Below, piece after piece: positions 39,790-64,000 of a stretch of DNA of 64,000 nt. The notes beneath the pieces are model-generated. The model saw only the letters and a program-made list of their open reading frames with translations, searched no databases and was not told the DNA's origin. Each line of letters begins with the position of its first letter. The first letter of the stretch is position 1. This DNA comes from a phage, in NCBI GenBank assembly GCA_024975835.1, contig GCA_024975835.1_4840.1. One strand, written 5' to 3'. The position numbers and the translations under genes were made by a program.

Positions 39790-39812
39790 GGGGCTTAACG
39801 CCCCTTTTCTTA
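39790..39812. terminator. bidirectional intrinsic terminator
   Basis: GGGGC-TTAAC-GCCCC hairpin between convergent genes, A-run before and T-run after. Confidence 0.65.
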
Positions 39813-46933: not shown

Positions 46934-48712
46934 ATGGCCACGCAAACAGTCCCTTCACTCGATGTCAGGGCTTTCGAGTATCTTATCAAGAAGCGTATGA
47001 AAGCTGATCCAACTTTCAAGGATTATGACTTTGAAGGTTCTGGTCTCAGTGCAATCGTGCGTATCTTGGCCTCGGATGCCAACTCTATCGGGTTCATGCA
47101 GAACATGCTGAATGGCGAAAGCCATCTTCACTCTGCTCAACAGCGTTCTAATGTCGGTCTTGCGGCCGGGTTCTTGTCGTACACCCCTCATAACTACCAG
47201 GCGGCGTACCTGTATGCAAACGTCACAGTCACTCCATATGACGCCAGCACGGCTCCGGACACGATTATAATGGATCGCCGCGCGATGTTCATTGGGGCGA
47301 AGGATGGCAAATCCTACAACTTCACGGTTGAACAACCTGTGAGTGCCTCTCTTGTAGACGGCTCTTACAAGTTCGAGAACATCAAACTCATACAGGGTAA
47401 CTGGCTGTACAAGTCCTATGACGTGGAAGGCAGCGCGATTTCTACCTATGTGATCCCATCTTCTTCCGTGGACATCGACCATATGGTAGTGCAGGTACAG
47501 GAATCTGAGACATCTGACGTGCGGTCTACCTTCTCACGGTATGTCAGCCCGTTCGATTTGAGCCAGTATGCGCAACTCTACTTCGTTGAGCTGGGGTTGG
47601 ACGGAATGTACACGTTCGAATTCGGTGATGGGTACATCTGCAAGCGAGTAGAAGACGGCAATGTTGTGTACCTCCAGTATCTGGAGACAGCTGGTGCGGA
47701 CGGCAATGACATCACTGCCTTGTCCTCCGCGTCTTCCATCGGGGGATTCAACCTTGTAGATGTTGAGCTGGTGTCAGAACGTTCTTCCGGCGGTGCGGAC
47801 CCAGAGAGCATTGAGGACATCAAGCGCCTTGCTCCGCTGGCTTATCAGGCAGAGGGTGCGGCGGTAGCCGAAGTCGATTATGCTGTGTTGACCGAGCGTC
47901 TGTTCTCCAACGTCTCCCGCGCCAAAGCATATGGCGGAGACACGCTCTCTCCGCCCGACTCCGGATACGTTTACATTGCTGTGGTGCCTTCTGTTGGTGA
48001 GACGCTCTCGGACGCCGAGAAGGCAGATATCGTGGCGACGTTGGACAAGTACAATGTGGGTACGATCACACCCAAGATTGTCGACGCTGAACTGACTTAT
48101 GTTGATGTCACCACCCGCGTGTTCTGGGATCCGACTTCCACGTCCTATACCGAAGAGCAGTTGAAGACAGTCGTGAAGAACGGTGTTGTCAACTGGGGCT
48201 TGGGGAACCTAGAAGGATTCGACGAACTGTTCGATAAAGAGCAGTTACAGTCGGCCATCACCGACATGGACAGATCGATAGTGTCAAACATCACTTCTGT
48301 GAAGTATAAGCGCCATTTCAAGCCAGACTATGGGGTACTGGACAGCTTCACATTCGATTTTGGGCGCTCGATTGCGTCTGGTTCTGTGCGTATCAGTGGG
48401 TTTAAGCCGCTTCCGGCCGAGGTCGAATTCACTTACTACATACGCGACGTCAGTGGTGTCCTGAATATGTACAAGGTGAGTACAACAGACACGACCAAGG
48501 AATATCTGGTACAAGCTGTTGGAACGGTTGATTATGTGAATGGCGTTGTTGAACTCCAGCGTATCATAGTATCCAACTACAACACTGAGGGTGTGACAAT
48601 AATTGTGTCTCCAGACGGTCTTGACCAGAACATTCAGGCCACACAGAATCAGGTGCTCCGCATCGGTGCTGTAACTGTGGAGCCGGAGGTGCGTTATGTC
48701 CAAAGATCTTAA
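46934..48712 (+). CDS. baseplate wedge protein (Baseplate-J / T4 gp6-like, tentative)
   Basis: Start at MATQTV (GGAG 6 nt upstream); about 590 aa, first gene of the late plus-strand module. Confidence 0.5.
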   Translation: MATQTVPSLDVRAFEYLIKKRMKADPTFKDYDFEGSGLSAIVRILASDANSIGFMQNMLNGESHLHSAQQRSNVGLAAGFLSYTPHNYQAAYLYANVTVTPYDASTAPDTIIMDRRAMFIGAKDGKSYNFTVEQPVSASLVDGSYKFENIKLIQGNWLYKSYDVEGSAISTYVIPSSSVDIDHMVVQVQESETSDVRSTFSRYVSPFDLSQYAQLYFVELGLDGMYTFEFGDGYICKRVEDGNVVYLQYLETAGADGNDITALSSASSIGGFNLVDVELVSERSSGGADPESIEDIKRLAPLAYQAEGAAVAEVDYAVLTERLFSNVSRAKAYGGDTLSPPDSGYVYIAVVPSVGETLSDAEKADIVATLDKYNVGTITPKIVDAELTYVDVTTRVFWDPTSTSYTEEQLKTVVKNGVVNWGLGNLEGFDELFDKEQLQSAITDMDRSIVSNITSVKYKRHFKPDYGVLDSFTFDFGRSIASGSVRISGFKPLPAEVEFTYYIRDVSGVLNMYKVSTTDTTKEYLVQAVGTVDYVNGVVELQRIIVSNYNTEGVTIIVSPDGLDQNIQATQNQVLRIGAVTVEPEVRYVQRS

Positions 48713-49550
48713 TAACGGACACAATGGGGTGAAATATGAAACCCCATTGTTTTACCAGAATGAATTCCCAGTATTCATCGAGTTTATGGATACGTTCTTC
48801 AACTGGTTGTATCGACAGCAGGGATTCACCGAAGAGGAGATCTTGGCGTATCTGGCAGACACTGGTGGCTGGGTGAACCCAAATACGGATCAGTCTCCTA
48901 TTGAGCAGTTGATTGACATCAAGAAGCGCAAGACGCCAGGTACTGAGGCCAAAGACTTCTTGGAAGACAAGTTCCTGACGCGCACGTTTGAGAACATGAT
49001 GGCGCTAGACTTCGAAGATTTGCTGGACGTGGACGGTCGGCCATTAATCTCAATGGAAGACAAGAACGAACGCATCGACGATTGGTATGCTGATTTTGGA
49101 TTCCAGAGAACGGTTGATAAGTCCTTCCTGGAGTTCGGGAAGTTTGTGCCAGTTGGTTCGGACAGTTTGGTGACTTCAGACGGAGACACTCTCTCTGTAT
49201 ATGTCGAGGGAACTGAACGCCGGACACTGGACCATGTACGCTGGTTGAAGTTACTTAAACACATTTATCGCATTCGCGGGACGAAGAAAGCGATTGAATT
49301 GTTCTTCTGGATTTACTTTGGTTGCCCAGTGAGTGTGTATTATCCCAAGGAAGCAATTGGTGGCCTGGATGACAACTTTGAATGTGACGGCGCGACAGGA
49401 ATGCGTGACGATTACTACTATGATGAATTCACGTATGTGATAAGAGTTCCTGGCAACGTATCTGATTTTGAAGGTGTGTTTGATCGCGTCTTCCGTCAGC
49501 ATTTCCATCCTGCTGGGTTTACTGTATTCCTAGAAAGTTCAAGGAGTTAA
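48696..49550 (+). CDS. putative baseplate/tail structural protein
   Basis: 284-aa ORF translationally coupled to neighbours. Confidence 0.45.
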   Translation: MSKDLNNGHNGVKYETPLFYQNEFPVFIEFMDTFFNWLYRQQGFTEEEILAYLADTGGWVNPNTDQSPIEQLIDIKKRKTPGTEAKDFLEDKFLTRTFENMMALDFEDLLDVDGRPLISMEDKNERIDDWYADFGFQRTVDKSFLEFGKFVPVGSDSLVTSDGDTLSVYVEGTERRTLDHVRWLKLLKHIYRIRGTKKAIELFFWIYFGCPVSVYYPKEAIGGLDDNFECDGATGMRDDYYYDEFTYVIRVPGNVSDFEGVFDRVFRQHFHPAGFTVFLESSRS

Positions 49551-49552
49551 AA

Positions 49553-50743
49553 ATGGCCGATTTTCTGAGTCAATACACAGGTCAGCAGATTGATGCAATC
49601 CTTTCTTCTGTTGACGATAAAATAAGCAAGACTGATGTTGTCAACGATTTCGCTGTTGATGATCCGTTGTTCCCTCCTTCAGCTCATTTGACATACGAGC
49701 TGAAGCGTTCTGTGGATAATATCTACGACACACTGGAAAACAAAGTGATCCGCACCGACGGTGGTGAACAAACGATCAACGGGAGAAAGACTTTTGTTGC
49801 GTTGTTGACCGCCAACGGCGGCCTGACTGTTCCGGCTGGAAAGAAACTTTCTATCGCGGATGAGCCTACGATAGCGACAGATGGTGTTAACCTGAGCATG
49901 TTGAGAAAGCATGGTGTCAGTGAAGACACTACCCCACCTGGTTCTGGTTTGGCTGGGGAGTTGTTGGCATCCGGATATTACAAATTCAATTTGGATTTCA
50001 CCAAATTGTCTGCGTATATCGGATCAACGTTGCCGACTTCAATCCCAGTACAAACAGATTCTGGAGCGCGTTATTGGACAATGACTGCATTTTTTGATGC
50101 GTTGTTTGCAGATAACCGATTTAATGGATATGTGACAACGACAGCGTATGATGCAGATATGCTGAGTTTAGAGTCCCAGATTAATAACATCAACACATCG
50201 TTGAACGGGAAAGTCAACACATCGACTTACAACACTAAGATGGCGTCATTGGATTTGAGTATCTCCAATATCAATACGTCTCTGGGTAATAAAGTCGAGG
50301 TCAGCACGTACAACACGAAGATGACATCTCTGGATAACAGCATCAGTTCTCTTTCCAGTGATAAAGTTAATGTATCAACGTATAATGCCAAGATGACCTC
50401 TGTCGACAATAGTTTAGGGAACGCCGTTTATCGTACCAAAACGAATTTGTCTTCTTACACGGTTTCGGCTTCTGGGACGACGGCTCTTCCAGATTTTGAT
50501 TTGGTGAACCTTTGTCAAATACTGGTGACCGCGCAATGGGGAACAGGTAACGTTGTTGATACATATCGAGTAACCATAACTCGCGACGGAACTATCAAAT
50601 CGGAGTTGTTGGTTCAGAAAAGTACGAGCGGTACAGTGACGTTCACAGGTTCTGTGGTGGGTGGTAAATTGAGAATTTCCGTTGTTAATGCGAACACGAC
50701 GACTGCGTGCTACGTTGACTACAATCTAGTCGCTTCTTTCTAA
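49553..50743 (+). CDS. tail-fibre-like protein with tandem 23-aa repeats
   Basis: 396 aa; repeats of the type N(I/T)SL(N/G)xKVxxSTYNxKM(A/T)SLDxS in the central region. Confidence 0.5.
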   Translation: MADFLSQYTGQQIDAILSSVDDKISKTDVVNDFAVDDPLFPPSAHLTYELKRSVDNIYDTLENKVIRTDGGEQTINGRKTFVALLTANGGLTVPAGKKLSIADEPTIATDGVNLSMLRKHGVSEDTTPPGSGLAGELLASGYYKFNLDFTKLSAYIGSTLPTSIPVQTDSGARYWTMTAFFDALFADNRFNGYVTTTAYDADMLSLESQINNINTSLNGKVNTSTYNTKMASLDLSISNINTSLGNKVEVSTYNTKMTSLDNSISSLSSDKVNVSTYNAKMTSVDNSLGNAVYRTKTNLSSYTVSASGTTALPDFDLVNLCQILVTAQWGTGNVVDTYRVTITRDGTIKSELLVQKSTSGTVTFTGSVVGGKLRISVVNANTTTACYVDYNLVASF

Positions 50744-50751
50744 AGTGAAAA

Positions 50752-50758
50752 CTAAATA
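50752..50758 (+). promoter_or_regulatory. late-promoter-like CTAAATA motif
   Basis: ACTAAATACCCC 38 nt upstream of the ATG at 50796. Confidence 0.4.
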
Positions 50759-50795
50759 CCCCTAGATGAAACGAACACATTTAGGGGTATTTGAA

Positions 50796-53700
50796 ATGGC
50801 TAATAAACCAACACAGCCTGTTTTCCCTCTCGGTCTGGTGGCTGAAGAGCAGTCTACTTTGGCTGGTGTCGTCAACACGGGTACGATTGAGCATGGACCA
50901 GATGCTGTCCTGACTTTACCCGAGGGTAATGCCAGCGCAGGACTCCCGTCTTCCGTTCGCTACAATGCCGACTCCGACGAATTTGAGGGCTTCTATGAAA
51001 ATGGTGGATGGTTGCCGCTGGGTGGCGGTGGTATCCGCTGGGAAGTCCTTCCGCATGCCTCTACGGCAACGCTCACTGAAGGGCGAGGCTATCTCATTAA
51101 TAATACCACAGGGGCATCTACAGTGGTTCTCCCTTCCCCTACGCGTGTTGGGGATTCTGTTACTATTTGCGACGCTTATGGGAAATTTGCCACTTACCCA
51201 TTGACTGTGTCTCCTTCTGGAAATAATTTGTATGGCTCCACTGAAGACATGGCTATAACAACTGATAACGTATCAGCAACGTTCACTTGGTCTGGACCTG
51301 AACAAGGTTGGATTATTACATCCGGCGTCGGTCTTGGCCAAGGTCGTGTCTACAGTCGTGAAATCTTTACAAAAATTTTGGCGTCTGAGACAAGTTCTGT
51401 CACTCTCAATACTCCACCAACAATCGTGGACGTGTATGCTGATGGAAAACGTCTTGCGGAATCCAAATATTCACTAGATGGGAATGTAATCACTTTCAGT
51501 CCTTCTTTGCCAGCCAGCACAGAACTTCAGGTGATTGAATATACTCCTATTCAATTGGGTATTGGGGATGGTTCTGGCTCTTCCACGATTACCTGGGTCT
51601 ATAATGGGGGTTCAGCGATTGGTGGTGAAACCGAAATCACGTTGGACGTCGTTGTTGATGATGTTCCGGCCATTGATATAAACGGAAGTCGCCAGTATAA
51701 AAATCTGGGGTTCACATTCGATCCATTAACCAGTAAAATCACTCTTGCGCAAGAACTGGAACCAGAGGATGAAGTTGTTGTAATTATCAATGGAACACCA
51801 AACATCTATAATCAAATTGATCATACTTTGCGGGAAGTTGCTCGCGCAACCAATGTTAAAGATACAGAGGTCGTTTATTTTAGTGTTGGTGCTGCGTTAA
51901 GTGGGTATAAAGTTATTTATGACAAGGAGACGCAAAGGGCTTATCCCTTGCCTGCTGATATTGCCCCTGGTACTACTGCTGTCAGTCTTAGTTCTTCCGC
52001 TGTACTTGTGCATTCAGCGGGTTCTGTAGACCTCGGGGAATTGGCTGTTACTCGTGAAGAGTACGTCACATTGTCCGGAACATTTGATACTGGTGTAACA
52101 GTTAATACCAAGAATGAACTGGTTGTTTTTACTGATGGTAAGTACCGTTGGGATGGGGTGTTGCCTAAAGAAGTTTCTGCTGGCTCAACTCCAGAGACTG
52201 CTGGTGGTGTAGGTGCGGGAAAATGGTTGAGTGTTGGTGATGTATCATTGAGAGCCGACTTACTGTCAGGTGGCATGACTGATTTAATTGGATTTCCTGG
52301 GTACAACAATCTTACAGCATTCTTGCATACCACTGTTCGTACAGTAGAAGAGTTCAGAAGTGACGGACTAACTGACGCACAGGTATTCCAAGCGGCAATC
52401 AATGCAGGTAACGTGCGTGTGCCAGCAGGTAGCGTTATTAACATCACAGGGAATATTGATATCACTATCCCAGCCAATCGTTTAATTGTTGTAGATGACG
52501 GAGGTATATTACGCTCTAACGGTCGTTTTACAGCTTACGGCGTAAACGATGTTCATTGGGTAATTAACGGACTAGTTGAAAGCACTGGCATGGTTGCGGC
52601 CCCGGCAAAATCTGGATGGCCCAATACAGCAGAAGGCACTCAAGCGGGAGATGAGCGTGGGTTTATTGAGTTTGGTGGTGTTGTATTCGCCGGTAACGAT
52701 GGGAAGAATTATTCTGTAACTGGTTCAGGGCACATTCAGGGTCCATGGTCTGGAACTCCTAACGTTTCAGATTTAGCCAATCAGTTAAATAAAAAGGGTA
52801 TTGCTGCGTGGAACTGCTCAGGATTCACTGTTGAAGGCGTTAGTATCGACGGCTTTGAAGGTGAGCAAGTGTATTGGTTTGCTCGCAACGCAGACAACAG
52901 AGACGCAATTTTCAATAGAGTAAAAAGTACCAATGCACGTTTTAACGCCCTGAACATGAACGTGTACAGCGCAACAAAAAATATTCGTGTGATCGATTGT
53001 TACACCAATAATTCGTACAACGGAATTGAATCATCTGCTGGTGATATCATTAACACAATCCATGACAATCCGGTTAACACAGGTATTCTGTTTGGTTCAG
53101 GTACTGGTGGTGGCAACCGATTAATTGAAGGCAATCAGGTGAACGAATGCCTCGGAACACCTTATTCACTACTTTATAATAAGGACTATGAAAGTCGTGG
53201 GTATGTACCTAACGTTACAGTGGTAAACAACACCGCAACAAACCCCGGCGTTCACTTCATCGCCATCTCAGGCATCACTGGATTCAAAGTCGCCAACAAT
53301 ACATGTTACGGGCTTAAAACAGGTAGATTTATTCAGGCCACCGTTTTACAAGGCGGTATTATAGAAAATAATACTAACTACAAACCATCACCAGGGACAG
53401 AGCACGTCTATCGTGGCGAATGTTATAGCGTAGAAGAGCATAATAACGCGCGTGTACTTTTAGGCGGTTCGTATGTTACTGCCGCCGCGTCAGACCACGC
53501 CATAACCGGGGGGAATTCAAGCGCTATAACGACATTCGGCAATCGTGAAAACTTCAAGGATTTACGTGCTGACAGTCCAGCAATCGGAACTGGCGCAGAA
53601 CTTAGATACTCTGTTGATATAGGCGCCGCATTTACTCCTGTATCGTTAAGTATGCAACTGACCACATATGGGGGTTCAGGCGCTCAAGCTGACTGGTCTA

Positions 53701-54275
53701 TCAATAACCTAAAGATAAATCCTAATGATGTACTTGGGCAGTCATGGGTGTCTCGACATACAGGACATTGGGAACCTGGGACTGATGGTATACAAAATTT
53801 CGGGTCACCAACGCGCCGTGTTAACAACAGCTATTTCACGGTAGCGCCTACTGTAACGTCTAATGAAATGGCTAAAACTGCGCTGTTAGATCTATCTGAA
53901 GCAGAACGTAACGCGGCATTAGAAATTAAAGATAACATTCGCAAGTATAAGCTATTAGATGCTATCGCTATTAAAGGGGAGGATGGTGCCCGTTGGCACT
54001 TCGGTGTGGGTGCACAAACGGTAGGCGATATAATGAGAAAACATGGACTTAATCCTGCTGACTATGGGTTTTGGTGTCACGATACATGGGAAGACCAATA
54101 CACGGATGTAATGAAAAAAATTTATACCGGAAATACCGTTGTAAATGAGGAAGGACTTTCAGTTCCTGAATACACATTAGAACCAACAGGTGAAAGGATG
54201 CTTGTTAGGACCGCCGGAGAAAACTACGGCATTCGTTATGATGAATTGTCTATGTTTATATTAAGTGCAATATAA
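50796..54275 (+). CDS. tailspike protein 1 (beta-helix depolymerase-like, C-terminal chaperone-like domain)
   Basis: Start at MANKPTQ (AGGGG upstream); conserved anchor module around residues 350-480; pectate-lyase-like repeats in the middle; C-terminal GARWHFG...GIRYDE domain shared with tailspike 2. Confidence 0.65.
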   Translation: MANKPTQPVFPLGLVAEEQSTLAGVVNTGTIEHGPDAVLTLPEGNASAGLPSSVRYNADSDEFEGFYENGGWLPLGGGGIRWEVLPHASTATLTEGRGYLINNTTGASTVVLPSPTRVGDSVTICDAYGKFATYPLTVSPSGNNLYGSTEDMAITTDNVSATFTWSGPEQGWIITSGVGLGQGRVYSREIFTKILASETSSVTLNTPPTIVDVYADGKRLAESKYSLDGNVITFSPSLPASTELQVIEYTPIQLGIGDGSGSSTITWVYNGGSAIGGETEITLDVVVDDVPAIDINGSRQYKNLGFTFDPLTSKITLAQELEPEDEVVVIINGTPNIYNQIDHTLREVARATNVKDTEVVYFSVGAALSGYKVIYDKETQRAYPLPADIAPGTTAVSLSSSAVLVHSAGSVDLGELAVTREEYVTLSGTFDTGVTVNTKNELVVFTDGKYRWDGVLPKEVSAGSTPETAGGVGAGKWLSVGDVSLRADLLSGGMTDLIGFPGYNNLTAFLHTTVRTVEEFRSDGLTDAQVFQAAINAGNVRVPAGSVINITGNIDITIPANRLIVVDDGGILRSNGRFTAYGVNDVHWVINGLVESTGMVAAPAKSGWPNTAEGTQAGDERGFIEFGGVVFAGNDGKNYSVTGSGHIQGPWSGTPNVSDLANQLNKKGIAAWNCSGFTVEGVSIDGFEGEQVYWFARNADNRDAIFNRVKSTNARFNALNMNVYSATKNIRVIDCYTNNSYNGIESSAGDIINTIHDNPVNTGILFGSGTGGGNRLIEGNQVNECLGTPYSLLYNKDYESRGYVPNVTVVNNTATNPGVHFIAISGITGFKVANNTCYGLKTGRFIQATVLQGGIIENNTNYKPSPGTEHVYRGECYSVEEHNNARVLLGGSYVTAAASDHAITGGNSSAITTFGNRENFKDLRADSPAIGTGAELRYSVDIGAAFTPVSLSMQLTTYGGSGAQADWSINNLKINPNDVLGQSWVSRHTGHWEPGTDGIQNFGSPTRRVNNSYFTVAPTVTSNEMAKTALLDLSEAERNAALEIKDNIRKYKLLDAIAIKGEDGARWHFGVGAQTVGDIMRKHGLNPADYGFWCHDTWEDQYTDVMKKIYTGNTVVNEEGLSVPEYTLEPTGERMLVRTAGENYGIRYDELSMFILSAI

Positions 54276-54281
54276 CAAAAA

Positions 54282-54306
54282 CCCCGCTTTGGCGGGGTTC
54301 TTATTA
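54282..54306 (+). terminator. intrinsic terminator
   Basis: CCCCGC-TTTG-GCGGGG hairpin followed by TTCTTATTAT. Confidence 0.7.
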
Positions 54307-54310
54307 TACC

Positions 54311-54374
54311 TTTGTTCATAAATTTATTAGTTCAGACTAAATACCCTATATTGGCAAATCCTTTATGGGGTATT
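54311..54374 (+). repeat. 64-bp direct repeat, copy 1 (promoter/leader cassette)
   Basis: Identical except one base to 56971..57034; contains CTAAATACCC and the RBS/start context of tailspike 2. Confidence 0.7.
54337..54343 (+). promoter_or_regulatory. late-promoter-like CTAAATA motif
   Basis: 35 nt upstream of the ATG at 54378. Confidence 0.4.
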
Positions 54375-54377
54375 ATC

Positions 54378-56696
54378 ATGATTTCTCAATTCAATCAACC
54401 ACGCGGCTCCGCTTCCATAGAAGTTAACAAACAATCTATCGCTCGAAATTTCGGTGTCAAAGAAGACGAAGTCGTTTATTTCACTGCTGGTATTGATCTC
54501 AGTGGATTTAAAGTAATTTATGATGAGACCACCCAACGGGCTTATTCTCTCCCTTCCGGTATTGTTTCAGGGACAACTGCAATTAGTCTGGACGAACGAG
54601 CTATCCTCACTCATTCCGCTGGTTCTGTTGATCTAGGGGAACTTGCCGTAGCCAGAGAAGAATATGTAACCTTACCTGGTTCATTTGATACCGGTGTAAC
54701 CGTCAATGCTAAGAATGAATTGGTTGTCTTTACCGACGGCAAGTACCGTTGGGATGGGGAGATTCCCAAAATAGTACCTGTCAACACAACCCCTAAAGAT
54801 ACTGGGGGTGTTGGTCTAGGGGCATGGTTAAGAGTCGGCGATGCATCTTTGCGTTCTGAAGTTTACTCAAATATGGCTTGGGTTTCTCCTGAAATGTACG
54901 GTGCACTTGAAACGGAATCTGATGCGGATACTCAAGCTGTTATAGATGCGTTTATTACCGCGAAGACAATGGGGCTGGCTGTGAAGCTGTCCAGAATATA
55001 TAAGTGTGATCAAAACATATCAGTAGCTAATTTTTACGGAGATATTTTTGGCGTAAGTATGGCCACATGCGGAATAAAATTTGCTGCTGGATATGGTCTT
55101 ATCATTGATAACTCTGGGACCACAGTAGTACGCAAACCTGTAGGTCTTTGTAATTTCACCATTAAAGCCACTGGTAAACGACAAGGCACTGCTCTAGAGT
55201 TTCTAGGTACTGGTGGAATAGCTTATGCACGACAACTTATTGTAAGAGATTTAGATGTATCAAATGATGCTGGAACCCCTACCTCTTTTGATGTAGTATT
55301 CAAGTTAAACCGTGCAGGTCAATGTGTATTTGATGGGGTGAATGTCGCTGGCGGTGGCACAAGCGACCCCAACGCTCGCATGGGCAAAATATTCGACCTG
55401 TACTCAACAAAGAATATCAATGTTGTCAACGGTTCTTATCAGAACTTCGACACCTTCATGTACGCGCATGACGATACCGAAGGTGTTGTGGTTTTCGGTA
55501 ACCACATCATCGCAGGTCGTCGTGGTGTTGTCTCAGAAAACAATGTTGGCAACTTGTTCCAGGTAACGAACAACCACTTCAACACATCGTTGAGTGCTGT
55601 AGAGTTGGGCGATCTGTCTAACAACGGTGGGAACCATAGCATAATCACCGACAACTTCTGTATGGTATGGAATGGGATTCCTGAAGATGATACTACGCCA
55701 TATATCGGGTTCAAGTCCTGTGCCATGTACGGAACCTATAGTGATAATGAGGTGCTTCTGTCTGGTTTCACTAAAGACGTTACTCACACCTTGTTTACTT
55801 CTAATGCCACAGGGACCAGAACGGCACAATACAATATAGTAAGCAACCCAAGAGTTAATAATTGTACCAGAGGCATTCATATGCTGGCTGGCACCCAATC
55901 GAACCATGTGAGCAACGTCCAGCGCGTAGGCGTAACACTGGCAAATGCCATCATAGATGAAGGGGCAAACAACAGGTCATGGATGTTTGATGTAGATAAT
56001 AATGCATTTATGACCAGAAACATAAAATTGTGCACTCCAGGTTCAGCCGTTGCGCAGCAAATTCGTTTTTACTCCGCTACTGATGCAAATACACCAAGCG
56101 CCATTCTCCGAGTATCTGGAGGCGTTGCCGGTGTTGGCGGGGATGGGACGGCAGAGCTTACTGCTGGTACTACCGTCTTTAAAAACATTAGACCGTCAGC
56201 TGCAAACACTTATAGCTGCGGATCTAGCGGTGCACCGTGGTCTGGCGGGTTCACACAAACTGCATTCACCGTGACATCTGATGCTGATTACAAATCAGAT
56301 CCACTGCTGATGACTGATGATATTCTTGATGCAGCAGAAGAGGTACAACTTGTCCAGTATCAATATCTCGACAGGATTGAAGAAAAAGGAGCTGACGGTG
56401 CCCGCTGGCACTTCGGAGCCATTGCACAACGGTATGTAGAGGCATTTGAAAGACACGGGCTTGATGCTCATCGCTTTGGGTTCATCTGTTATGATGAATG
56501 GGGTGATGCTCCTGCTGTCATAGATGAAGATACTGGCGAAGTGATCACGCCAGCTATTGAGGCAGGATCAAGATACGGCATTCGTTATGAAGAAATGCTG
56601 GTAATGGAAGCAGCGCTGCAACGCAGAAACTATGCGCGGCTACTTGATAAATACGAAACACTTGAGGCTCGTATTAGCTCATTAGAGAATAAATAA
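54378..56696 (+). CDS. tailspike protein 2 (with C-terminal chaperone-like domain)
   Basis: Start at MISQFN; N-terminal anchor module nearly co-linear with that of tailspikes 1 and 4; C-terminal domain homologous to that of tailspike 1. Confidence 0.6.
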   Translation: MISQFNQPRGSASIEVNKQSIARNFGVKEDEVVYFTAGIDLSGFKVIYDETTQRAYSLPSGIVSGTTAISLDERAILTHSAGSVDLGELAVAREEYVTLPGSFDTGVTVNAKNELVVFTDGKYRWDGEIPKIVPVNTTPKDTGGVGLGAWLRVGDASLRSEVYSNMAWVSPEMYGALETESDADTQAVIDAFITAKTMGLAVKLSRIYKCDQNISVANFYGDIFGVSMATCGIKFAAGYGLIIDNSGTTVVRKPVGLCNFTIKATGKRQGTALEFLGTGGIAYARQLIVRDLDVSNDAGTPTSFDVVFKLNRAGQCVFDGVNVAGGGTSDPNARMGKIFDLYSTKNINVVNGSYQNFDTFMYAHDDTEGVVVFGNHIIAGRRGVVSENNVGNLFQVTNNHFNTSLSAVELGDLSNNGGNHSIITDNFCMVWNGIPEDDTTPYIGFKSCAMYGTYSDNEVLLSGFTKDVTHTLFTSNATGTRTAQYNIVSNPRVNNCTRGIHMLAGTQSNHVSNVQRVGVTLANAIIDEGANNRSWMFDVDNNAFMTRNIKLCTPGSAVAQQIRFYSATDANTPSAILRVSGGVAGVGGDGTAELTAGTTVFKNIRPSAANTYSCGSSGAPWSGGFTQTAFTVTSDADYKSDPLLMTDDILDAAEEVQLVQYQYLDRIEEKGADGARWHFGAIAQRYVEAFERHGLDAHRFGFICYDEWGDAPAVIDEDTGEVITPAIEAGSRYGIRYEEMLVMEAALQRRNYARLLDKYETLEARISSLENK

Positions 56697-56810: not shown

Positions 56811-56941
56811 TACCCCAAACAATCCTTTATGTAGACTGTTTTAGTCAATTACGACTTAACTAACCTGAGAAAGTCCCTATGGGAAATGAACCAGATAACG
56901 TAACTCTAGCGAGAGACTGAGAAACATTTCGAAAACCAAAA

Positions 56942-56966
56942 CCCCGCTTCGGTGGGGTTTCTCTTA
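56942..56966 (+). terminator. intrinsic terminator (second, in tandem)
   Basis: CCCCGC-TTCG-GTGGGG hairpin followed by TTTCTCTT; near-copy of the 54282 terminator. Confidence 0.65.
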
Positions 56967-56970
56967 TACA

Positions 56971-57034
56971 TTTGTTCATAAATTTATTAGTTCAGACTAA
57001 ATACCCCATATTGGCAAATCCTTTATGGGGTATT
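56971..57034 (+). repeat. 64-bp direct repeat, copy 2 (promoter/leader cassette)
   Basis: 63 of 64 identical to 54311..54374. Confidence 0.7.
56997..57003 (+). promoter_or_regulatory. late-promoter-like CTAAATA motif
   Basis: 37 nt upstream of the ATG at 57040. Confidence 0.4.
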
Positions 57035-57039
57035 TTCAA

Positions 57040-59103
57040 ATGACCAGAAACGTCGAGAGCATCTTTGGAGCGGTCGTAACAGCTCCACACCAGATTCCAT
57101 ACACTTACACAGCAACTGGCGGAGAGAAGTTTATCTCCCTCCCTTTCTACCCTGTCACTGGAGTAGTCACAGTCAACGGTAGTATGCAAGTTCCGTTAGA
57201 CAACTTCGAGATAGACGGGAATACGTTAAACCTTGGGCGCGCATTATCCAAAGGCGATGTTGTGTTCTGTCTGTTTGATAAGATTCTTTCGCCAGAAGAT
57301 TATAAAACCGGGATTCGAATCTATAAGTTTCAGGCTGTAGGAGGTGAAACTGAGTTCACTCCTGATTTCACATCTTATGGAGTCCAATCTCTTTATATCG
57401 GTGGTGAGTACAAAACACCCGAAATTGAATATTCCTATAACAGCACGACAGGGAAAGTGTCTTTGCAAACTGCACTGACTGCAGGCGTTTGGGTTGTGGC
57501 TGAAATGTCTGCTAAACAACCGAATATCGGTCCGTTGTTTGACCGAAGTATTCAAGAAATCGCTCGTGCAGCTAACGTAAAAGACTCTGAAGTAATCCTT
57601 AGTACAGATAGTACCCAGTTCCTGAATGACAAGAAGATTGTTTATTCTGTTAGTGAACAGAAGGCTTATGGGTTACCAGTATTACCTACTAACGTATTCA
57701 TTCAGTCTGTGGATAATGGCAAGTTAACTTACTCCCCAGGTAACATTGCTGTAGACCTGGTTCCTGTTCCTGGCTCTGCTGAGTCACTTACTGCTTCGGA
57801 TGTTCCAACTACTTCTGGGGATTCCGTACAGGATGGGTTAGATAGTATTGATGTATTTATTGATACTGACTCATATAAGAGAGTTGGGGATATTCGCGGT
57901 TATACAACCACGCAGGATGTAACTCCTGTTAACGCAATTATTGCAGCAAATCAAGATGTTGGTATTATTCGGCTACCTAAGGGTAACTGGACTGGTAACT
58001 TTGCTCTGCTAAATAAAACTAGTTTAGATGGCACTTCACTTGCTACTACAACGTTAACTGTTCCAATTAATACAGCAGGTATTAAACCCTCCGGTACTGA
58101 TGTACGTGGTATTAACATTAGTAACATTGCTATGCAGGTGGTGGGTGCTGTGTCTGGTGGGGCACCAATTGGTACAGGTATTGGTCTGGATATGACTGGC
58201 TGTACTAAGATGGTTAACTGTACTATTTCTAATATCTATAGTGATTTCTTTGATATTGGTTTCAAAGCTGGCCCTGCTGATTTCTCTAACGTTTACAATA
58301 ACATTCGCTGTAATAACAACCGTATTGGTTTTGATATTTCTAGTAACGGGCAGATTATTGAGAATACCTGGAACAGCCCATATGCTGCTAACTGGACCCA
58401 GATTGGTATGAAGATTAGTGGTGTTGGTGGTCAGGTAATCAATGCACCAAACTTTGGGCATAATGGCACCGCTGGCGCTTACTTCATGCACATTGACACC
58501 AACTCCCGTGGAGTGATTATTAATGGTGCTAACTTCGAAATGGATGCTGTAGGTGGTAAACTTTCTGCTGGTAGCCAAGCAGTAATTGTAGCTTCTGACT
58601 CAGCAGTTACTTTTAATGCCCCTGTATTCAATAAGGTTGGTGCTGCTGGCCCTAATACCTATCTTTTTCGTATCCGTGGTACATGTGTAGTACATATTAA
58701 CAATCCGCAGATTTACAATGATGATGGGATTGTTGGACACTTACGTATTGAAGATACTGCTACTGTATATCTGAATGACCCTAAAGGCGTTATTACGGTA
58801 ATTTCTGTGGCAGCAGGTGCTAAGTTGATTCGTGTACATGAAAAACTGGCTAATGCACCTAGTTATACGGCTGTTCAATCAGTTCAGTCTGGTACAGTTG
58901 TAAACGTTGGTTTCTATCCTACGTATGCTATAGGTGTACCGGATTTCCATGCCAGCGCACTACCAGCTACATTTAAGTATGCCGTTACCTTTGATACGTA
59001 TAACTCTACCCATGGAACTATGGTAGCTAGGGTTTACGATACTACTACCGGGTTGTATGTTACTTCAGTATCTGTTCCCACATTCATTCAAGCATGGCGT
59101 TAG
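57040..59103 (+). CDS. tailspike protein 3
   Basis: Start at MTRNVES (track's upstream Met lies inside the repeat); shorter, divergent anchor region (IQEIARAANVKDSEV); Gly/Asn-rich beta-helix-like body. Confidence 0.6.
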   Translation: MTRNVESIFGAVVTAPHQIPYTYTATGGEKFISLPFYPVTGVVTVNGSMQVPLDNFEIDGNTLNLGRALSKGDVVFCLFDKILSPEDYKTGIRIYKFQAVGGETEFTPDFTSYGVQSLYIGGEYKTPEIEYSYNSTTGKVSLQTALTAGVWVVAEMSAKQPNIGPLFDRSIQEIARAANVKDSEVILSTDSTQFLNDKKIVYSVSEQKAYGLPVLPTNVFIQSVDNGKLTYSPGNIAVDLVPVPGSAESLTASDVPTTSGDSVQDGLDSIDVFIDTDSYKRVGDIRGYTTTQDVTPVNAIIAANQDVGIIRLPKGNWTGNFALLNKTSLDGTSLATTTLTVPINTAGIKPSGTDVRGINISNIAMQVVGAVSGGAPIGTGIGLDMTGCTKMVNCTISNIYSDFFDIGFKAGPADFSNVYNNIRCNNNRIGFDISSNGQIIENTWNSPYAANWTQIGMKISGVGGQVINAPNFGHNGTAGAYFMHIDTNSRGVIINGANFEMDAVGGKLSAGSQAVIVASDSAVTFNAPVFNKVGAAGPNTYLFRIRGTCVVHINNPQIYNDDGIVGHLRIEDTATVYLNDPKGVITVISVAAGAKLIRVHEKLANAPSYTAVQSVQSGTVVNVGFYPTYAIGVPDFHASALPATFKYAVTFDTYNSTHGTMVARVYDTTTGLYVTSVSVPTFIQAWR

Positions 59104-59162: not shown

Positions 59163-61241
59163 ATGAACGAAATGTTCTCACAAGGTGGTAAGGGTTCAAC
59201 TGGAATCTTAACCAACAAACAAGCAGTAGCTCGTCACTTTGGGGTTAAACAATCTGAGGTTGTTTACTTCTCAGTGGGTGCTGTACTAAGCGGTTATAAA
59301 GTTATCTATGACAAAGTGTCACAGCGTGCTTATTCCTTACCTGCCGACATTGGTTCAGGGGTTACTGCTGTAAGCCTTAGTCCTGCTGGGGTATTAGTTC
59401 ACTCTGACGGTAATGTTGACTTGGGTGCACTAGCCGTTACCCGCGAAGAGTATGTAACCCTACCTGGCTCATTTACTACAGGCGTTACTGTTAATAGTAA
59501 AAATGAACTTGTTGTGAGTGTTGGTGTTAAATACCGTTGGGATGGTTCTCTACCTAAAGTAGTTCCTCCTGATTCTACTCCATTAAGCACTGGGGGAGTT
59601 GGCCCAGGGGCATGGATAGTAGAAGGTGTTGCTGGGTTGGAGCAACGTTTGGCTTCCTGGGAAGGTTCATCCATTATTGACTCTGGTAATCTGTCCCTTT
59701 ACAAAAAGAGTGGTGTATTTGGTGATGGTGGGGAAGTAACTGATAAGCAACAGGTTATTAAGCATACAGATGGATTTTGGTACAAGTATACTGGAACCCT
59801 GCCCGTTAGCTATGGCTCTGCCCCAGACTCTTCCTGGACTAATGTTGGTAAGTTAACCGGGTTTAATGAACACTCACCTGAGAACTTTGGGGCAATCCCG
59901 AACGATGCCAGCTTTGACTGTCTACCTGCTATAAAATTAGCTATAGCTACAGGCACATTAAACCTGGATGGTAATTCTACCTACCACGTAACTGATGAGG
60001 TTATCATACCCTCACATCTACGTGGGAATTTGAATGGGGCAACAATCAAAGCAATCGGTCCTACCTGGCCTGTATTAAAATCTGTTGTTCGTGTTAGTAA
60101 ATTTCCTATTGGAACCCCAACCGTTGATGTAGCTAATACTGAGAACCAGGTACGAGGGCTACGTTTAATTGGTAGTTTGAACATAGACTGTGCAGATATT
60201 GCATCGTATGGTTTTTACGCACGACTAATGTGTGCAGAATCCGAGATGGGTAGTATCTATTCTTACAATGCTAATAAGTATGGCATTGTAATGTTCGCTT
60301 GCTGGTATTTTCAGATGGGCGTGCTTCATGCAAACAATTGTGCAAGGGGGATGGCTTTAGGTTACTCAACAGAAGGGGAGCAGGGCGATACTTACGTAAA
60401 CGCAACATACTTCCCACACATTAGTGCATGGGGTACTGATAAGTCTACGGGGCTAGGCTATGACCCAATCACCGACGATGCAAGTAAGTACACAATAGGT
60501 GCTGGTATTATTCTAGGCCGTGGTTTGTCCACTAGTGTTGGTGTGCTGTGCTCTGAGAATACATCCGGTGCTGGTGTGGTAACAATGGACCCTGCTGCGT
60601 GGGATATTGGAGTTATGTACTGTGAGGGCAACAGTAAAGACTTCACTCAGGAGGGTGAGCCGAAGGTATCATTGTTGTCATCTAAGGCTAACAGCGAGAG
60701 TCATACACTTACCATCTCTACACTTCACCTATCTGCTGGTTGTGGCATTTTAACCAGAAGTAAACAAGAACGGGTGTTGATCAGAAGTCTTTACCGTTTT
60801 GATAATTCAAAAACCTTCCACTCTTACTGCACAGAAGATACAATAGAGATTGGTAGTAGCAACTACTATGTACTTAATGGTCATAATTACAATGCACCTG
60901 CTGCACTTATTAAAGAACCTCTCAATGTGGATTTTGTGCGATCAGGGCTGACCTTGAGTGAGTGGACACCTACCGTTATTGGTTACTTTCCTGGCAGCAC
61001 GTCAGAACAACAGCTTTATGTTAAGCTGCCTGTAAGCCCTAGTGGGCTAGATCTACAGATTGCTAGTGAAGATGGTACAGAATACATCACTGTAACTGGC
61101 ACAGATTTTAAAGCCTCTTTAACCAAGAAAAGGCTGCCCAGTAAGGTGTATGAGATAAAGATTGGGTCTGTCTCAACAGTAGCTGTTACTGATTGCTCCA
61201 TTTTAATCAGAAGTAAAAAAGGAGATTGGTACTACTGGTAA
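59163..61241 (+). CDS. tailspike protein 4
   Basis: N-terminal module (VARHFGVKQSEVVYFSVGAVLSGYKVIYDK...KYRWDGSLPK) highly similar to tailspikes 1 and 2; distinct C-terminal body. Confidence 0.6.
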   Translation: MNEMFSQGGKGSTGILTNKQAVARHFGVKQSEVVYFSVGAVLSGYKVIYDKVSQRAYSLPADIGSGVTAVSLSPAGVLVHSDGNVDLGALAVTREEYVTLPGSFTTGVTVNSKNELVVSVGVKYRWDGSLPKVVPPDSTPLSTGGVGPGAWIVEGVAGLEQRLASWEGSSIIDSGNLSLYKKSGVFGDGGEVTDKQQVIKHTDGFWYKYTGTLPVSYGSAPDSSWTNVGKLTGFNEHSPENFGAIPNDASFDCLPAIKLAIATGTLNLDGNSTYHVTDEVIIPSHLRGNLNGATIKAIGPTWPVLKSVVRVSKFPIGTPTVDVANTENQVRGLRLIGSLNIDCADIASYGFYARLMCAESEMGSIYSYNANKYGIVMFACWYFQMGVLHANNCARGMALGYSTEGEQGDTYVNATYFPHISAWGTDKSTGLGYDPITDDASKYTIGAGIILGRGLSTSVGVLCSENTSGAGVVTMDPAAWDIGVMYCEGNSKDFTQEGEPKVSLLSSKANSESHTLTISTLHLSAGCGILTRSKQERVLIRSLYRFDNSKTFHSYCTEDTIEIGSSNYYVLNGHNYNAPAALIKEPLNVDFVRSGLTLSEWTPTVIGYFPGSTSEQQLYVKLPVSPSGLDLQIASEDGTEYITVTGTDFKASLTKKRLPSKVYEIKIGSVSTVAVTDCSILIRSKKGDWYYW

Positions 61242-61252
61242 TAGATAGGAAA

Positions 61253-61280
61253 AGCCCCCAGAATTGGGGGCTTATTTCTT
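61253..61280 (+). terminator. intrinsic terminator
   Basis: AGCCCCCA-GAAT-TGGGGGCT hairpin followed by TATTTCTTTC. Confidence 0.7.
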
Positions 61281-61303
61281 TCTATTCCTCGGTTGGTTGT
61301 ATA

Positions 61304-61310
61304 CTAAATA
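61304..61310 (+). promoter_or_regulatory. late-promoter-like CTAAATA motif
   Basis: 35 nt upstream of the ATG at 61345. Confidence 0.4.
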
Positions 61311-61344
61311 TCTCTATAATGGCACCTATCGATGGAGCATCAAA

Positions 61345-64000
61345 ATGCAAGAAATGAACCTCAACCGCCGCCCATATTGGGATGACTGGAATCCAGAGAA
61401 GCGTTTTTCGCGCATCCTATTCCGTCCGGCACCTATCAAAGTTCAGACGCGTGAACTGAACCAGATGCAGACCATCTTCCAGGATCAACTGGAGAAACTT
61501 GGCAACCATCTGTTCAAAGACGGTTCAATGGTTATCCCCGGCGGCCTAACGATCACCAACACTGCTGTGTCCATGAAGTTCACTCTGGCTGGTGGTAGTG
61601 AGTTCACTGATCTGGAAGGTATCTCCGAACTCTATGTTCTGGGCAAGGACAACAATGCGAAAGCACGCGTCCTGTCCTTGGAACGTTATCCGGCTGAGCC
61701 AGATACAATGTATGCCATCTTAGAGATGACTGAGAGTGGTAGTTCAGACGGTTTCGAAGCTGGCGACAATCTATACTTCAACACCTATGACGTGAACGAT
61801 AACTTCATCCGTGTCGGCTATGGTGTGGCCGATACTGTTGGTGGTTCGATTGTCGCTCGCATGACAAAGGGTGTTTATTTCGTTCGTGGTATGTTCCTGG
61901 ATGTTGAACCAACCACTTTGATCGTAGACAACGCATCGAACTCTACATCTCACCGCATTGGCTTCAAAGTTACAGAAACAATCGTGACTGAAGCAGAAGA
62001 TGAAAGTCTGTTCTCCAATGCTCAGGGTACTCCGAACTCTAAAGCCCCTGGTGCGCATCGCCTGCGCGTCGACCTCGTGTTGTCTCGCTACGGTTATGAT
62101 GAAGAAGTGGCCGACTTCGTTGAACTGGCGAAGGTGAAAGACGGTCGCATTCAGTCCATGGTCACCCAGTCAACGTACAACATCCTCGAAGACGCCATGG
62201 CTCAGCGTACCTATGAGACTAATGGTGACTACAACGTCTCTACTCACCAGATCGACCTGCGCGAACATCTGAAACAGAACAACAACGGCGGCGTTTACAC
62301 TCCGGCTGAAGGTGGTGATGAAAGCAAATTCGTGGCGGTTATGAAGCCAGGGATATCCTACGTTCGTGGTCGTCGTATCGAAAACCTCGGCGAAGAGCTG
62401 GTCATAATTGAAAAAGCCCGTGACACTGATATCCTGAACAACAACCCTGTGGCTGTTTCGACTGGCAACTATCTGGTGTCCAAGAACTCCAAAGGGGTTC
62501 CGGTTGTCTCCCGCACAATCCGCTACAAGTTCCTGAACGCATCTAGCGATGTGCAGGCCACCGCCCTGCTGATTTCGGCAGAGCGCTCCGGTACTGAATT
62601 CCGTCTGTATATGCGCGACCTGGTTGTGACTGGAGACATGGGTACGGTGACCAAAGTCGCTTATGAAGAAAGCGGTACAACGATGTTCTCTTGCGAACTG
62701 GAGTCCAATCAGTTCAGTCAGAGTTCGGCGATTGACCTGATCTTCCCTCTTCCTGTATTTGGTGTGAAGACCCTAGCACCTACAGGCACCATCGACATCA
62801 ACTACACTGTCCTGCGGTCAAACAAGATCACGTTGAACGCCGCTGGTGCAGGCTCAATCTCTGCTCCTCTGGGTTACAGCTTCAGCCCTGAGTTTTCACT
62901 GTACTCCGCAGCGAAAGCAGATGGCACTGCAGCTCAGTTTGATATCTCTTCGGGACTGTCCCTGGCTGGTACTCCGGTTGGTTCAGCACTGCAGATTTCC
63001 CTGGGCGCGGGGTACGCCAACCAGTCTATCAACCTGTTGGCATTGATGGTCCGCACCACAGCGACGATCAAGACCAAGACTGTTACCGAAGTCACCGAGA
63101 CTGTGACGTTTACTACGGCAGCCAGCGTACAACTTGGGAACCACGACGGATACAAGCTGGTCAGCGTGAAGAACGCAAATGGTGCTGACGTCACCTCGAA
63201 CTTCACTCTGGACGGCGGTCAGCGTGATGCTGCATACTACCTTTCTAACCTCGTATCGTCTACTGGATCCATCTCAGGCGTGTTCACAGTGGTGTACCAG
63301 TACTTCGCTCACAGTTCTGGTGATTTCTTCACAGCGGACTCCTATTCGTCCATCAACTACCCAGACATCCCGAACTATGTTTCATCCAGTTCTGGTACTG
63401 TGTATGGGTTGGCCGACAGCCTGGACTTCCGTCCTAAGATCACCAACGGAACGTCTGACACGGACATGGTTCGCCCGAACACCGCGATCATCCTAGATGC
63501 AGAGTACTATCTGCCTCGTATTGATGCCGTGTATCTGGCAGACAACGGCGTGTTCAACGTTGCTCGCGGTGTGAGTTCCAACAGCCTGGCTTCCCCTGCG
63601 ATCCCAGACAACGGCATGCGTCTGTACGAATTGATGATCCCACCATACACGGCCAACATTGACGACATCCAGATTCGCACTATCGACAACCGCCGCTACA
63701 CGATGCGCGATATCGGTAAACTGGAGACCCGTATCTCCAATGTCGAATATTACACCTCACTGTCTCAGCTGGAATCCTCGGCGATGGCGCAACAGGTGTT
63801 CGATCCAATTACTGGCAACCCGCGCTTCAAGAACGGTATCGCAGCAGACCCGTTCAAAGACTTCCGTCTGATCGACGATTTGTCTGCAGACTGGGTGGGT
63901 TCAATCGACACTGACAATGGTCGCCTGCGTCCGTTTGTTCAGCAGAACGCGATTGACCTGACGCCAGTCGGTTGGAACAACGTTCAGGATGGCATGGTTG
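61345..64000 (+). CDS. large virion structural protein (baseplate/tail-associated), 3' end beyond window
   Basis: I translated this frame codon by codon from ATG 61345 to position 63999: about 885 codons with no stop. Not in the ORF track because no stop falls inside the window. Confidence 0.6.
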   Translation, partial: MQEMNLNRRPYWDDWNPEKRFSRILFRPAPIKVQTRELNQMQTIFQDQLEKLGNHLFKDGSMVIPGGLTITNTAVSMKFTLAGGSEFTDLEGISELYVLGKDNNAKARVLSLERYPAEPDTMYAILEMTESGSSDGFEAGDNLYFNTYDVNDNFIRVGYGVADTVGGSIVARMTKGVYFVRGMFLDVEPTTLIVDNASNSTSHRIGFKVTETIVTEAEDESLFSNAQGTPNSKAPGAHRLRVDLVLSRYGYDEEVADFVELAKVKDGRIQSMVTQSTYNILEDAMAQRTYETNGDYNVSTHQIDLREHLKQNNNGGVYTPAEGGDESKFVAVMKPGISYVRGRRIENLGEELVIIEKARDTDILNNNPVAVSTGNYLVSKNSKGVPVVSRTIRYKFLNASSDVQATALLISAERSGTEFRLYMRDLVVTGDMGTVTKVAYEESGTTMFSCELESNQFSQSSAIDLIFPLPVFGVKTLAPTGTIDINYTVLRSNKITLNAAGAGSISAPLGYSFSPEFSLYSAAKADGTAAQFDISSGLSLAGTPVGSALQISLGAGYANQSINLLALMVRTTATIKTKTVTEVTETVTFTTAASVQLGNHDGYKLVSVKNANGADVTSNFTLDGGQRDAAYYLSNLVSSTGSISGVFTVVYQYFAHSSGDFFTADSYSSINYPDIPNYVSSSSGTVYGLADSLDFRPKITNGTSDTDMVRPNTAIILDAEYYLPRIDAVYLADNGVFNVARGVSSNSLASPAIPDNGMRLYELMIPPYTANIDDIQIRTIDNRRYTMRDIGKLETRISNVEYYTSLSQLESSAMAQQVFDPITGNPRFKNGIAADPFKDFRLIDDLSADWVGSIDTDNGRLRPFVQQNAIDLTPVGWNNVQDGMV

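Follow-up and report, generated by a model that had tools for sequence, protein, structure and literature searches.

The edge-truncated open frame 61345-64000 of an Agtrevirus-like phage as the 5′ part of vriC, a likely homologue of the baseplate tripod gene of phage 812

The window analyzed here, a stretch of 64,000 nucleotides (nt) of phage DNA (contig GCA_024975835.1_4840.1 of the GenBank assembly GCA_024975835.1), ends within an open reading frame (ORF) on the plus strand that begins with ATG 61345 and is absent from the program-made list of ORFs. This raises the question of which gene is located at this position and what its product may do in the virion. A first-pass annotation, made from the sequence alone, had suspected a large baseplate or tail-fibre component. 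The frame 61345-64000 is almost certainly the 5′ 55% of vriC (also VrlC; Pfam DUF4815) of an Agtrevirus-like member of the Ackermannviridae, and with the same near certainty the whole VriC protein is collinear with and homologous to gp119, the tripod protein in the baseplate of Staphylococcus phage 812. The best explanation as a whole, which adds to this identity a mechanism inferred from the homologues, was judged to be very probable. Membership in DUF4815, orthology to vriC, and homology to the 812 tripod along the length all supported the initial suspicion, with “baseplate component” fitting VriC better than “tail fibre.”

Translation of the interval 61345-64000 on the plus strand gave 885 sense codons, no stop codon, and one base over, in agreement with the approximately 885 stop-free codons that had been counted before. 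The nearest in-frame stop codon upstream of ATG 61345 is TAG 61246, and the other five frames of the interval contain between 17 and 48 stops each. Based on the base composition of the window, an open frame of 885 codons would occur by chance with a probability of about 6e-20. No ORF starting at 61345 was listed because the list omits frames that run off an end, as the first-pass annotation had recognized. Instead, the list contains six short ORFs of 60 to 105 amino acids (aa) within 61345-64000, which are probably spurious because none of them is annotated in the related records inspected, and they should not be annotated as genes. ORF lists that drop edge-touching frames lose 2.66 kb of true coding sequence at this locus, which the first-pass annotation had put at 2.6 kb.

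ATG 61345 is the best start for vriC. It is the annotated start in the related phages AV101, A221, SKML-39, and RC-2014, is invariant in an alignment of five phages, and is preceded by the Shine-Dalgarno motif GGAG at 61333-61336 on the plus strand, 8 nt upstream of the start codon, as part of a TGGAG also invariant in the five phages. The next in-frame ATG, at position 61354, was considered and rejected with its distance of 17 nt from GGAG. The in-frame codons TTG 61264 and TTG 61297 were rejected as well, being located within or just downstream of a terminator and upstream of the promoter box, and without a Shine-Dalgarno motif.

A homology search with the 885 residues, named in the first-pass annotation as a way to check the frame, returned VriC of Escherichia phage AV101 with 98% identity, the DUF4815 family, and the 812 tripod. 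The fragment corresponds to residues 1-885 of the AV101 protein WJJ54140.1, with 870/885 identical residues, 15 substitutions, and no gap up to the last codon of the window. The vriC gene of AV101 has a length of 4,839 nt, encodes 1,612 aa, and is annotated as “virulence-associated VriC protein.” The coding sequence in the window therefore represents codons 1-885 of an expected 1,612, cut by the window end; about 727 codons are lacking, and the stop codon is to be expected near position 66183, which is about 2,183 nt past the end. At the DNA level, the interval 61268-64000 shares 97-98% identity with the Escherichia phages RPN242, A221, YX22, and AV101 and also with Salmonella phage vB_CECAV_050 and Enterobacter phage fGh-Ecl02 (megablast). 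Matching phage records numbered 76 at the DNA level and 1,043 at the protein level. The source of the window is an Agtrevirus-like phage of the Aglimvirinae within the Ackermannviridae.

The gene is highly conserved within this family. It spans exactly 4,839 nt in three Agtrevirus phages (AV101, A221, SKML-39), in the Limestonevirus RC-2014, in the Kuttervirus aagejoakim, and in the Taipeivirus KP6F1; the gene of the distant Ralstonia phage RSP15, with about 38% identity, has 4,848 nt. The amino acid identity of the fragment was 98% to AV101 and A221, 96% to SKML-39, 95% to RC-2014, and about 84% to Kuttervirus and Taipeivirus, and identity in blocks of 50 residues revealed no hypervariable block along the fragment. 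The ratio of nonsynonymous to synonymous substitution rates (dN/dS) was 0.073 in the comparison with AV101, 0.077 with A221, 0.052 with SKML-39, and 0.039 with RC-2014, and there were no insertions or deletions in the 885 codons; the great majority of the substitutions were synonymous. The interval 61345-64000 is a real gene under strong purifying selection. The vriC genes of the Ackermannviridae (products WJJ54140.1 of AV101, UTQ72553.1 of A221, AFU64346.1 of SKML-39, AHZ60190.1 of RC-2014, and QIO02607.1 of aagejoakim) are orthologous to it, with the same start codon, place after the tailspike cluster, upstream box, and ribosome-binding site, and with gapless alignments in the enterobacterial members. 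No substantial difference was found between these genes and the one in the window, of which 55% is covered; the tailspike genes upstream differ.

The fragment scored 164.4 bits (E 4.3e-48) in three stretches against Pfam PF16075 (DUF4815, VrlC-like), for which the gathering threshold is 30 bits, and the full-length AV101 orthologue scored 206.5 bits. PF16075 was present in 106/106 database homologues. A match to PHROG 358 had an E value of 2e-284, and this PHROG is without an assigned function. A database of 5.8 billion proteins returned no close relative of VriC, the best match being 32% identical, although GenBank phages hold sequences with 83-99% identity. This gap is specific to VriC because the 284-aa protein encoded in its neighbourhood got relatives with 77-99% identity there, from the same phage group. 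The diverse homologues from this search were used as the alignment for modelling. More distant members of the same family, with 26-38% identity over most of the fragment, are the VrlC/DUF4815 proteins of T4-like cyanophages, of the rhizobiophages PhiM9 and PhiM12, and of Vibrio, Ralstonia, and Stenotrophomonas myophages; their annotations are those of virion or structural proteins, no experimentally defined function was found for any of them, and their lengths (about 1,000-1,550 aa), C-termini, hosts, and gene neighbourhoods vary.

Only one kind of protein in the PDB matched the fragment by sequence, a 1,152-aa “DUF4815 domain-containing protein / ORF65” (9EUF, 9EUI, 9EUJ, 9EUK, 9TIC, and others; phmmer E 2.5e-18). 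Several of these entries are listed as containing tripod proteins in the paper on the phage 812 baseplate (PMC13433997), and judging by homology and length the chain was taken as the tripod protein gp119. The phmmer alignment consists of three collinear segments, which pair query residues 4-72 with 812 residues 3-70, 203-370 with 104-268, and 712-832 with 393-511. With a profile built from 67 family members, the match to the 812 tripod reached an E value of 6.3e-82. When the C-terminal part was taken from AV101, residues 889-1307 aligned to 812 residues 566-948 (E 1e-33). The 812 tripod (PDB 9EUJ, 9EUK, 9TIC, and others; EMBO J 2026, PMC13433997) thus belongs to the same DUF4815 family and is collinear with residues 4 to about 1307 of the 1,612-aa VriC and, weakly, with those up to about 1592. 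Both proteins are present in virions and are encoded beside genes for wedge or arm proteins and receptor-binding proteins (RBPs). VriC exceeds the 812 protein in length by about 460 residues, of which about 130 are located at 73-202 and about 220 at 371-711. Further differences are the Gram-negative hosts of its phages and the tailspike cluster inserted between the wedge genes and vriC.

The predicted structure pointed in the same direction. An AlphaFold2 (AF2) model of the fragment had a mean per-residue confidence (pLDDT) of 82.8 and a predicted template modelling score (pTM) of 0.65, with 43% strand and 12% helix. The fragment contains 24.6% glycine, serine, and threonine, compared with 19.2% for ten further long ORFs in the window, and together with the strand content of the model this roughly bears out the beta-strand-like composition rich in these residues that had been noticed at first. 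In a Foldseek search against the PDB, the only significant whole-chain matches were chains of the phi812 tripod (E 1.8e-26, 9e-20, and 5.5e-9, all with probability 1.00), with template modelling (TM) scores of 0.39 for 9eui_Q, 0.36 for 9euj_G, and 0.20 for 9euf_0; the other whole-chain matches were low-probability immunoglobulin-like S-layer or adhesin domains. As an observation aside, the AF2 monomer superposed better on the post-contraction tripod (TM 0.39 and 0.36) than on the pre-contraction tripod (TM 0.20), which may reflect no more than the way AF2 packs the domains of a truncated monomer.

Mapping of domains rests on the aligned segments and the predicted helices because the main text of the 812 paper does not give domain boundaries for the tripod. 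Three helices of the model were equated with the “spine helices” of the tripod because each of them falls inside one aligned segment. Helix 1 (residues 35-56; 61447-61512, plus strand, as all features of the gene) is located in the segment aligned to 812 residues 3-70 and would be the first spine helix. Its region contains the most conserved motif of the family, Q34/R36-E37-L38/Q40/Q42; across 67 homologues, Q42 is invariant and Q34, R36, E37, L38, and Q40 are nearly so. Residues 73-202 (61561-61950) are located in the gap between the first two aligned segments, are beta-rich with an all-strand model, and have little or no aligned counterpart in the 812 protein. Helix 2 (residues 280-293; 62182-62223), in the segment 203-370 aligned to 812 residues 104-268, is proposed as the second spine helix. 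Residues 371-711 (62455-63477) may form several beta-sandwich-like domains, being modelled as strands with a pLDDT mostly between 80 and 95, and this part is about 220 residues longer than the corresponding 812 residues 269-392. The long helix 3 (residues 787-815; 63703-63789), in the segment aligned to 812 residues 393-511, is proposed as the third spine helix, and M787, I790, R796, and E801 in this region are nearly invariant in the 67 homologues.

Other explanations of the frame need to be considered at this point. A chance ORF, a pseudogene, or a sequencing artefact that masks a frameshift would mean that 61345-64000 is not one functional gene, and the location of the stop codon beyond the window leaves the completeness of the gene unproven here. 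The chance probability of about 6e-20, the dN/dS values of 0.04-0.08, the absence of insertions and deletions, the conserved ribosome-binding site and start, and the gapless alignment up to the last codon speak against such a reading and make it extremely improbable; the chance ORF and the pseudogene were rejected on the frame statistics and the dN/dS values. Just as hard to believe is a bacterial-type “virulence-associated protein” that acts on a host or eukaryotic cell and is not part of the virion. This reading draws on the product names, since many records say “virulence-associated VriC/VrlC protein.” The name “VrlC” derives from similarity to vrlC in the vrl region of Dichelobacter nodosus. 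No functional evidence was found for such an activity, the gene is located among late structural genes, and its product is homologous to a baseplate protein seen in cryo-electron microscopy (cryo-EM) maps. Moreover, orthologous or related proteins are abundant in phage preparations: gp140 (VriC) of Kuttervirus Sajous1 was represented by 311 spectra in CsCl-purified virions and belonged to the top five most represented proteins (PMC10892097), and VrlC is cited in the PhiM9 paper as abundant in the proteome of PhiM12 (PMC4621102). The product name is misleading, and “baseplate tripod-like protein (DUF4815)” would be better.

A third alternative accepts VriC as a virion protein and makes it a host-recognizing tail fibre or RBP, a fifth adhesin beside the four tailspikes, which would be compatible with the location of vriC next to the tailspike genes. 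VriC is, however, 84-95% identical across phages of Escherichia coli, Salmonella, Klebsiella, and Dickeya while the neighbouring tailspikes are swapped, and it is without tailspike or fibre domains; the combination of a Tail_spike_N TD and a beta-helix catalytic domain, as in a tailspike, was not found in it. Since VriC is near-invariant across these hosts, it should be a conserved structural or trigger module, or a binder of a conserved feature, rather than a determinant of the host range, so that the fifth-adhesin explanation is unlikely. Conservation beside a hypervariable tailspike cassette makes vriC a good landmark. As a possible conserved trigger or secondary adhesin, VriC may also be relevant to the engineering of broad-host-range therapeutic phages.

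To outline how VriC as a tripod-like baseplate protein may function, the data on its homologues can be used. The 812 tripod is a peripheral baseplate complex solved by cryo-EM; tripod trimers bind the triangular docking loops of the arm scaffold, which have 28 and 40 residues and fit into the trimers, reorient, and trigger the opening of the baseplate (PMC13433997). In Listeria phage A511, the protein equivalent to the tripod according to the literature is gp106, trimers of which form pyramids on the baseplate (PMC9863714, PMC4621102), and the PhiM9 paper cites earlier work in which a VrlC homologue of A511 was immunolocalized to the baseplate (PMC4621102). The similarity of VriC to proteins in the baseplates of Listeria phage A511 and Staphylococcus phage phi812 has led the authors of a review from 2024 to speculate that VriC forms prong-like structures under the baseplate of the Ackermannviridae (PMC11721090).

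By analogy, VriC would form trimers at the periphery of the baseplate, and the “prong-like” structures beneath the baseplates of the Ackermannviridae may consist of such trimers. The N-terminal module encoded in the window would consist of the three spine helices and a beta domain that resembles the shoulder domains of siphophage RBPs and of TssK from the type VI secretion system (T6SS). It could provide a crevice in the trimer into which a loop of a wedge or arm protein fits, in the way that the 812 tripods dock on the arm-scaffold loops, and the C-terminal half of VriC, past the window, would point toward the cell. VriC may serve as a conserved structural or trigger module or, once the O-antigen or capsule has been cleared by the tailspikes, may bind a surface feature that is itself conserved. 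The likeness to the shoulder domains of T6SS TssK and of the RBPs of the lactococcal siphophages p2 and 1358 is a structural resemblance only, at 4-12% identity, and indicates neither a sequence-level relationship nor family membership.

This docking, prong, and trigger mechanism was given a slightly better than even chance. A more far-reaching version would make VriC the Gram-negative counterpart of the tripod, as trimeric prongs that switch conformation, dock with a shoulder-like crevice at the N-terminus on loops of a wedge protein of the TssG/gp7 class (possibly that encoded by 48696-49550), bind a conserved feature of the outer membrane or of the lipopolysaccharide core after clearance by the tailspikes, and trigger contraction of the sheath. 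This version is possible but doubtful. If true, it would explain the near-invariance of VriC across phages with differing tailspikes and hosts, and T6SS TssK, the siphophage RBP shoulders, and the myophage tripods would share one docking principle. With the phage 812 structure (2026), there is now a concrete model by which the unexplained prongs of the Ackermannviridae can be tested.

Several observations weigh against the proposed function and need to be set beside it. No structure of an Ackermannviridae baseplate was found in the literature searched, and location, stoichiometry, and trimer state of VriC are for this reason inferred from distant homologues. The identity in the structural alignment of VriC and the 812 tripod is 13-15%, with TM scores of 0.20-0.39, and the two proteins differ in the arrangement of their domains. 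A Pfam search of the AV101 orthologue gave no LysM domain at E ≤ 0.1, and the hosts of the Ackermannviridae are Gram-negative. The peptidoglycan-binding hook on which the authors of the 812 study speculated was, with no Pfam LysM in the orthologue, not found by sequence; a LysM-like hook or anchor at the C-terminus as in the tripod was also not apparent when AV101 VriC was compared with 812 residues 1007-1130 (domain E 1.3, not significant). Transfer of the cell wall binding mechanism of 812 to VriC is uncertain. The candidate docking partners, the 284-aa protein and the 396-aa protein of 49553-50743, showed no sequence match to the 812 arm proteins or the PDB when used as single sequences, and for the 284-aa protein this also held for a profile. 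The AF2 model of the 284-aa protein was poor (pLDDT 58), with low-confidence stretches at residues 93-122, 141-176, and 218-244, and its Foldseek matches, to baseplate chains of contractile systems with probabilities of 0.77-1.0, reached E values of only 4e-3 to 3e-2. Finally, the CTAAATA box upstream of vriC would be a candidate promoter, the bare heptamer of which is not enriched in the window.

The best Foldseek matches of the 284-aa protein were to phiCD508, the triplex region of diffocin, phi812 chain D, a Streptomyces contractile injection system, and the phages KP1, P1, and PhiTE. These model-based matches are suggestive of this protein as a candidate carrier of the docking loop for the TSP4 anchor, for the VriC trimers, or for both, which is a lead and not a result. 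Its gene (48696-49550, plus strand) shares 17 nt with the end of the gp6-like gene, and the product matches Pfam Baseplate_wedge (PF23786). The label “head closure Hc2” that it receives from PHROG 3465 seems to be a misannotation.

The genes of the region are arranged in the order gp6-like wedge gene (46883), 284-aa wedge protein, 396-aa protein, TSP4, TSP3, TSP2, TSP1, and vriC, so that vriC flanks the tsp cluster on the side opposite to the baseplate wedge genes. The same arrangement, with vriC next to the tsp cluster, is found in the review (PMC11721090) and in the AV101 paper, where vriC is drawn in the figure of the tsp locus, and vriC has been used as a conserved landmark flanking the tailspike cluster of the Ackermannviridae (PMC8432352, PMC11721090); it is an already known gene, annotated in dozens of GenBank records. 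Downstream of vriC, two small genes and the neck genes gp13/gp14 follow in six enterobacterial orthologue records, in all of which vriC has 4,839 nt, and this order is conserved. As a virion gene that is probably expressed late, vriC is located between the tailspike cluster and, past the window, the neck, terminase, and sheath genes.

The gene directly upstream of vriC, at 59163-61241 on the plus strand, encodes the tailspike TSP1, the last of the tsp4-tsp3-tsp2-tsp1 cluster (Pfam Tail_spike_N, E 6e-24), and the N-terminus of its product matches residues 1-171 of CBA120 TSP1 (4oj5, E 2e-72). It is the first gene of the cluster, 50766-54275, whose product matches the TSP4 anchor (7rej, E 8e-196). 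The statement of the first-pass annotation that the frame begins directly after the “tailspike 4” terminator was therefore correct with respect to the terminator-like hairpin and not with respect to the gene; given the match to CBA120 TSP1, “tailspike 4” was merely a positional label. A terminator scan and folding located an intrinsic-terminator-like hairpin with a T-run after tsp1 at 61252-61283 on the plus strand, AAGCCCCC-AGAA-TTGGGGGCTT, with a stem of 9 bp that includes 6 GC pairs and is followed by ATTTCTTTCT. It folds at -19.5 kcal/mol (z = -3.1). In three other Agtrevirus-like phages, this position is taken by a hairpin with another, shorter stem and loop, AAAGCCCC-TTCG-GGGCTT. The megablast matches to most relatives begin at query position 69, which is 61268 in the window and inside the tsp1 terminator. 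DNA homology with the relatives ends there because the upstream tailspike genes have been exchanged, and in these alignments about 61268 looks like a boundary of recombination, with the exchangeable tailspike module on one side and the conserved vriC on the other.

A putative late promoter of the gp55 type is located between the terminator and the start codon. The CTAAATA box, in the degenerate form CTAAATATCTC, occupies 61304-61310 on the plus strand with 34 nt between it and ATG 61345, so that the distance of 35 nt given before was accurate. The sequence ACTAAATA is invariant in five phages, including the Limestonevirus RC-2014, the flanking intergenic DNA of which has diverged. CTAAATA is the putative late-promoter motif of the T4-like phage Aeh1, where it starts at -12 (PMC1524935), and a late-promoter function of the box upstream of vriC is plausible. 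The heptamer occurs in 9 copies on both strands of the window compared with about 8 expected (128,000 x 4^-7, a rough estimate for uniform bases). Since it is not enriched, the copy upstream of vriC is backed by conservation and not by frequency. Three sigma-70-like promoters were found in the region compared with 5.8 expected, which is no enrichment, and a promoter-overlapping hairpin upstream of vriC was not significant (z -0.73).

Five of the nine CTAAATA copies have the extended form CTAAATACCC(C). Each of the five is followed by an ATG within a few tens of nt, and in four cases this ATG opens a long ORF on the same strand. The extended boxes were at 50752-50795, 54337-54377, and 56997-57040 on the plus strand and at 40406-40362 and 40307 on the minus strand, upstream of TSP4, TSP3, TSP2, and, on the minus strand, the long ORF 39810-40268 and another ATG at about 40258. 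Four of the five boxes are followed by ATACCCC, which pairs with a GGGGTAT immediately adjacent to the start codon; these four hairpins are strong, folding at -12.9 to -21 kcal/mol (z -3.6 to -7.4), and their 5′ arm overlaps the promoter box. With an Aeh1-like start about 12 nt after the C, the full hairpin could form only in read-through transcripts or in the DNA.

These boxes also touch on the starts of the tailspike genes. Residue 1 of 7rej (CBA120 TSP4-N) aligns to residue 11 of the listed ORF, and ATG 50796, just past the hairpin, is therefore probably the true start of TSP4. The listed starts of TSP4 (ATG 50766) and TSP3 (TTG 54312) are probably too early; the TTG of TSP3 is located upstream of its own CTAAATACCC box. 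A direct repeat of 105 nt with 91% identity, at 54274-54378 and 56934-57038 on the plus strand, takes in the intergenic regions with promoter and hairpin that precede TSP3 and TSP2, so that its two copies enclose the whole of TSP3. The repeat is a plausible substrate for homologous recombination that leads to deletion or exchange of a tailspike cassette.

An edge effect similar to that at vriC was observed at the left end of the window, where 2-766 on the plus strand is open from the first base for 254 codons. The encoded residues match positions 78-204 of the Pfam profile DNA_ligase_A_M, which has 204 positions (E 3e-12), and correspond to the C-terminal portion of an ATP-dependent DNA ligase; the list gives this ligase fragment as 80-766, with a GTG that is a false start.

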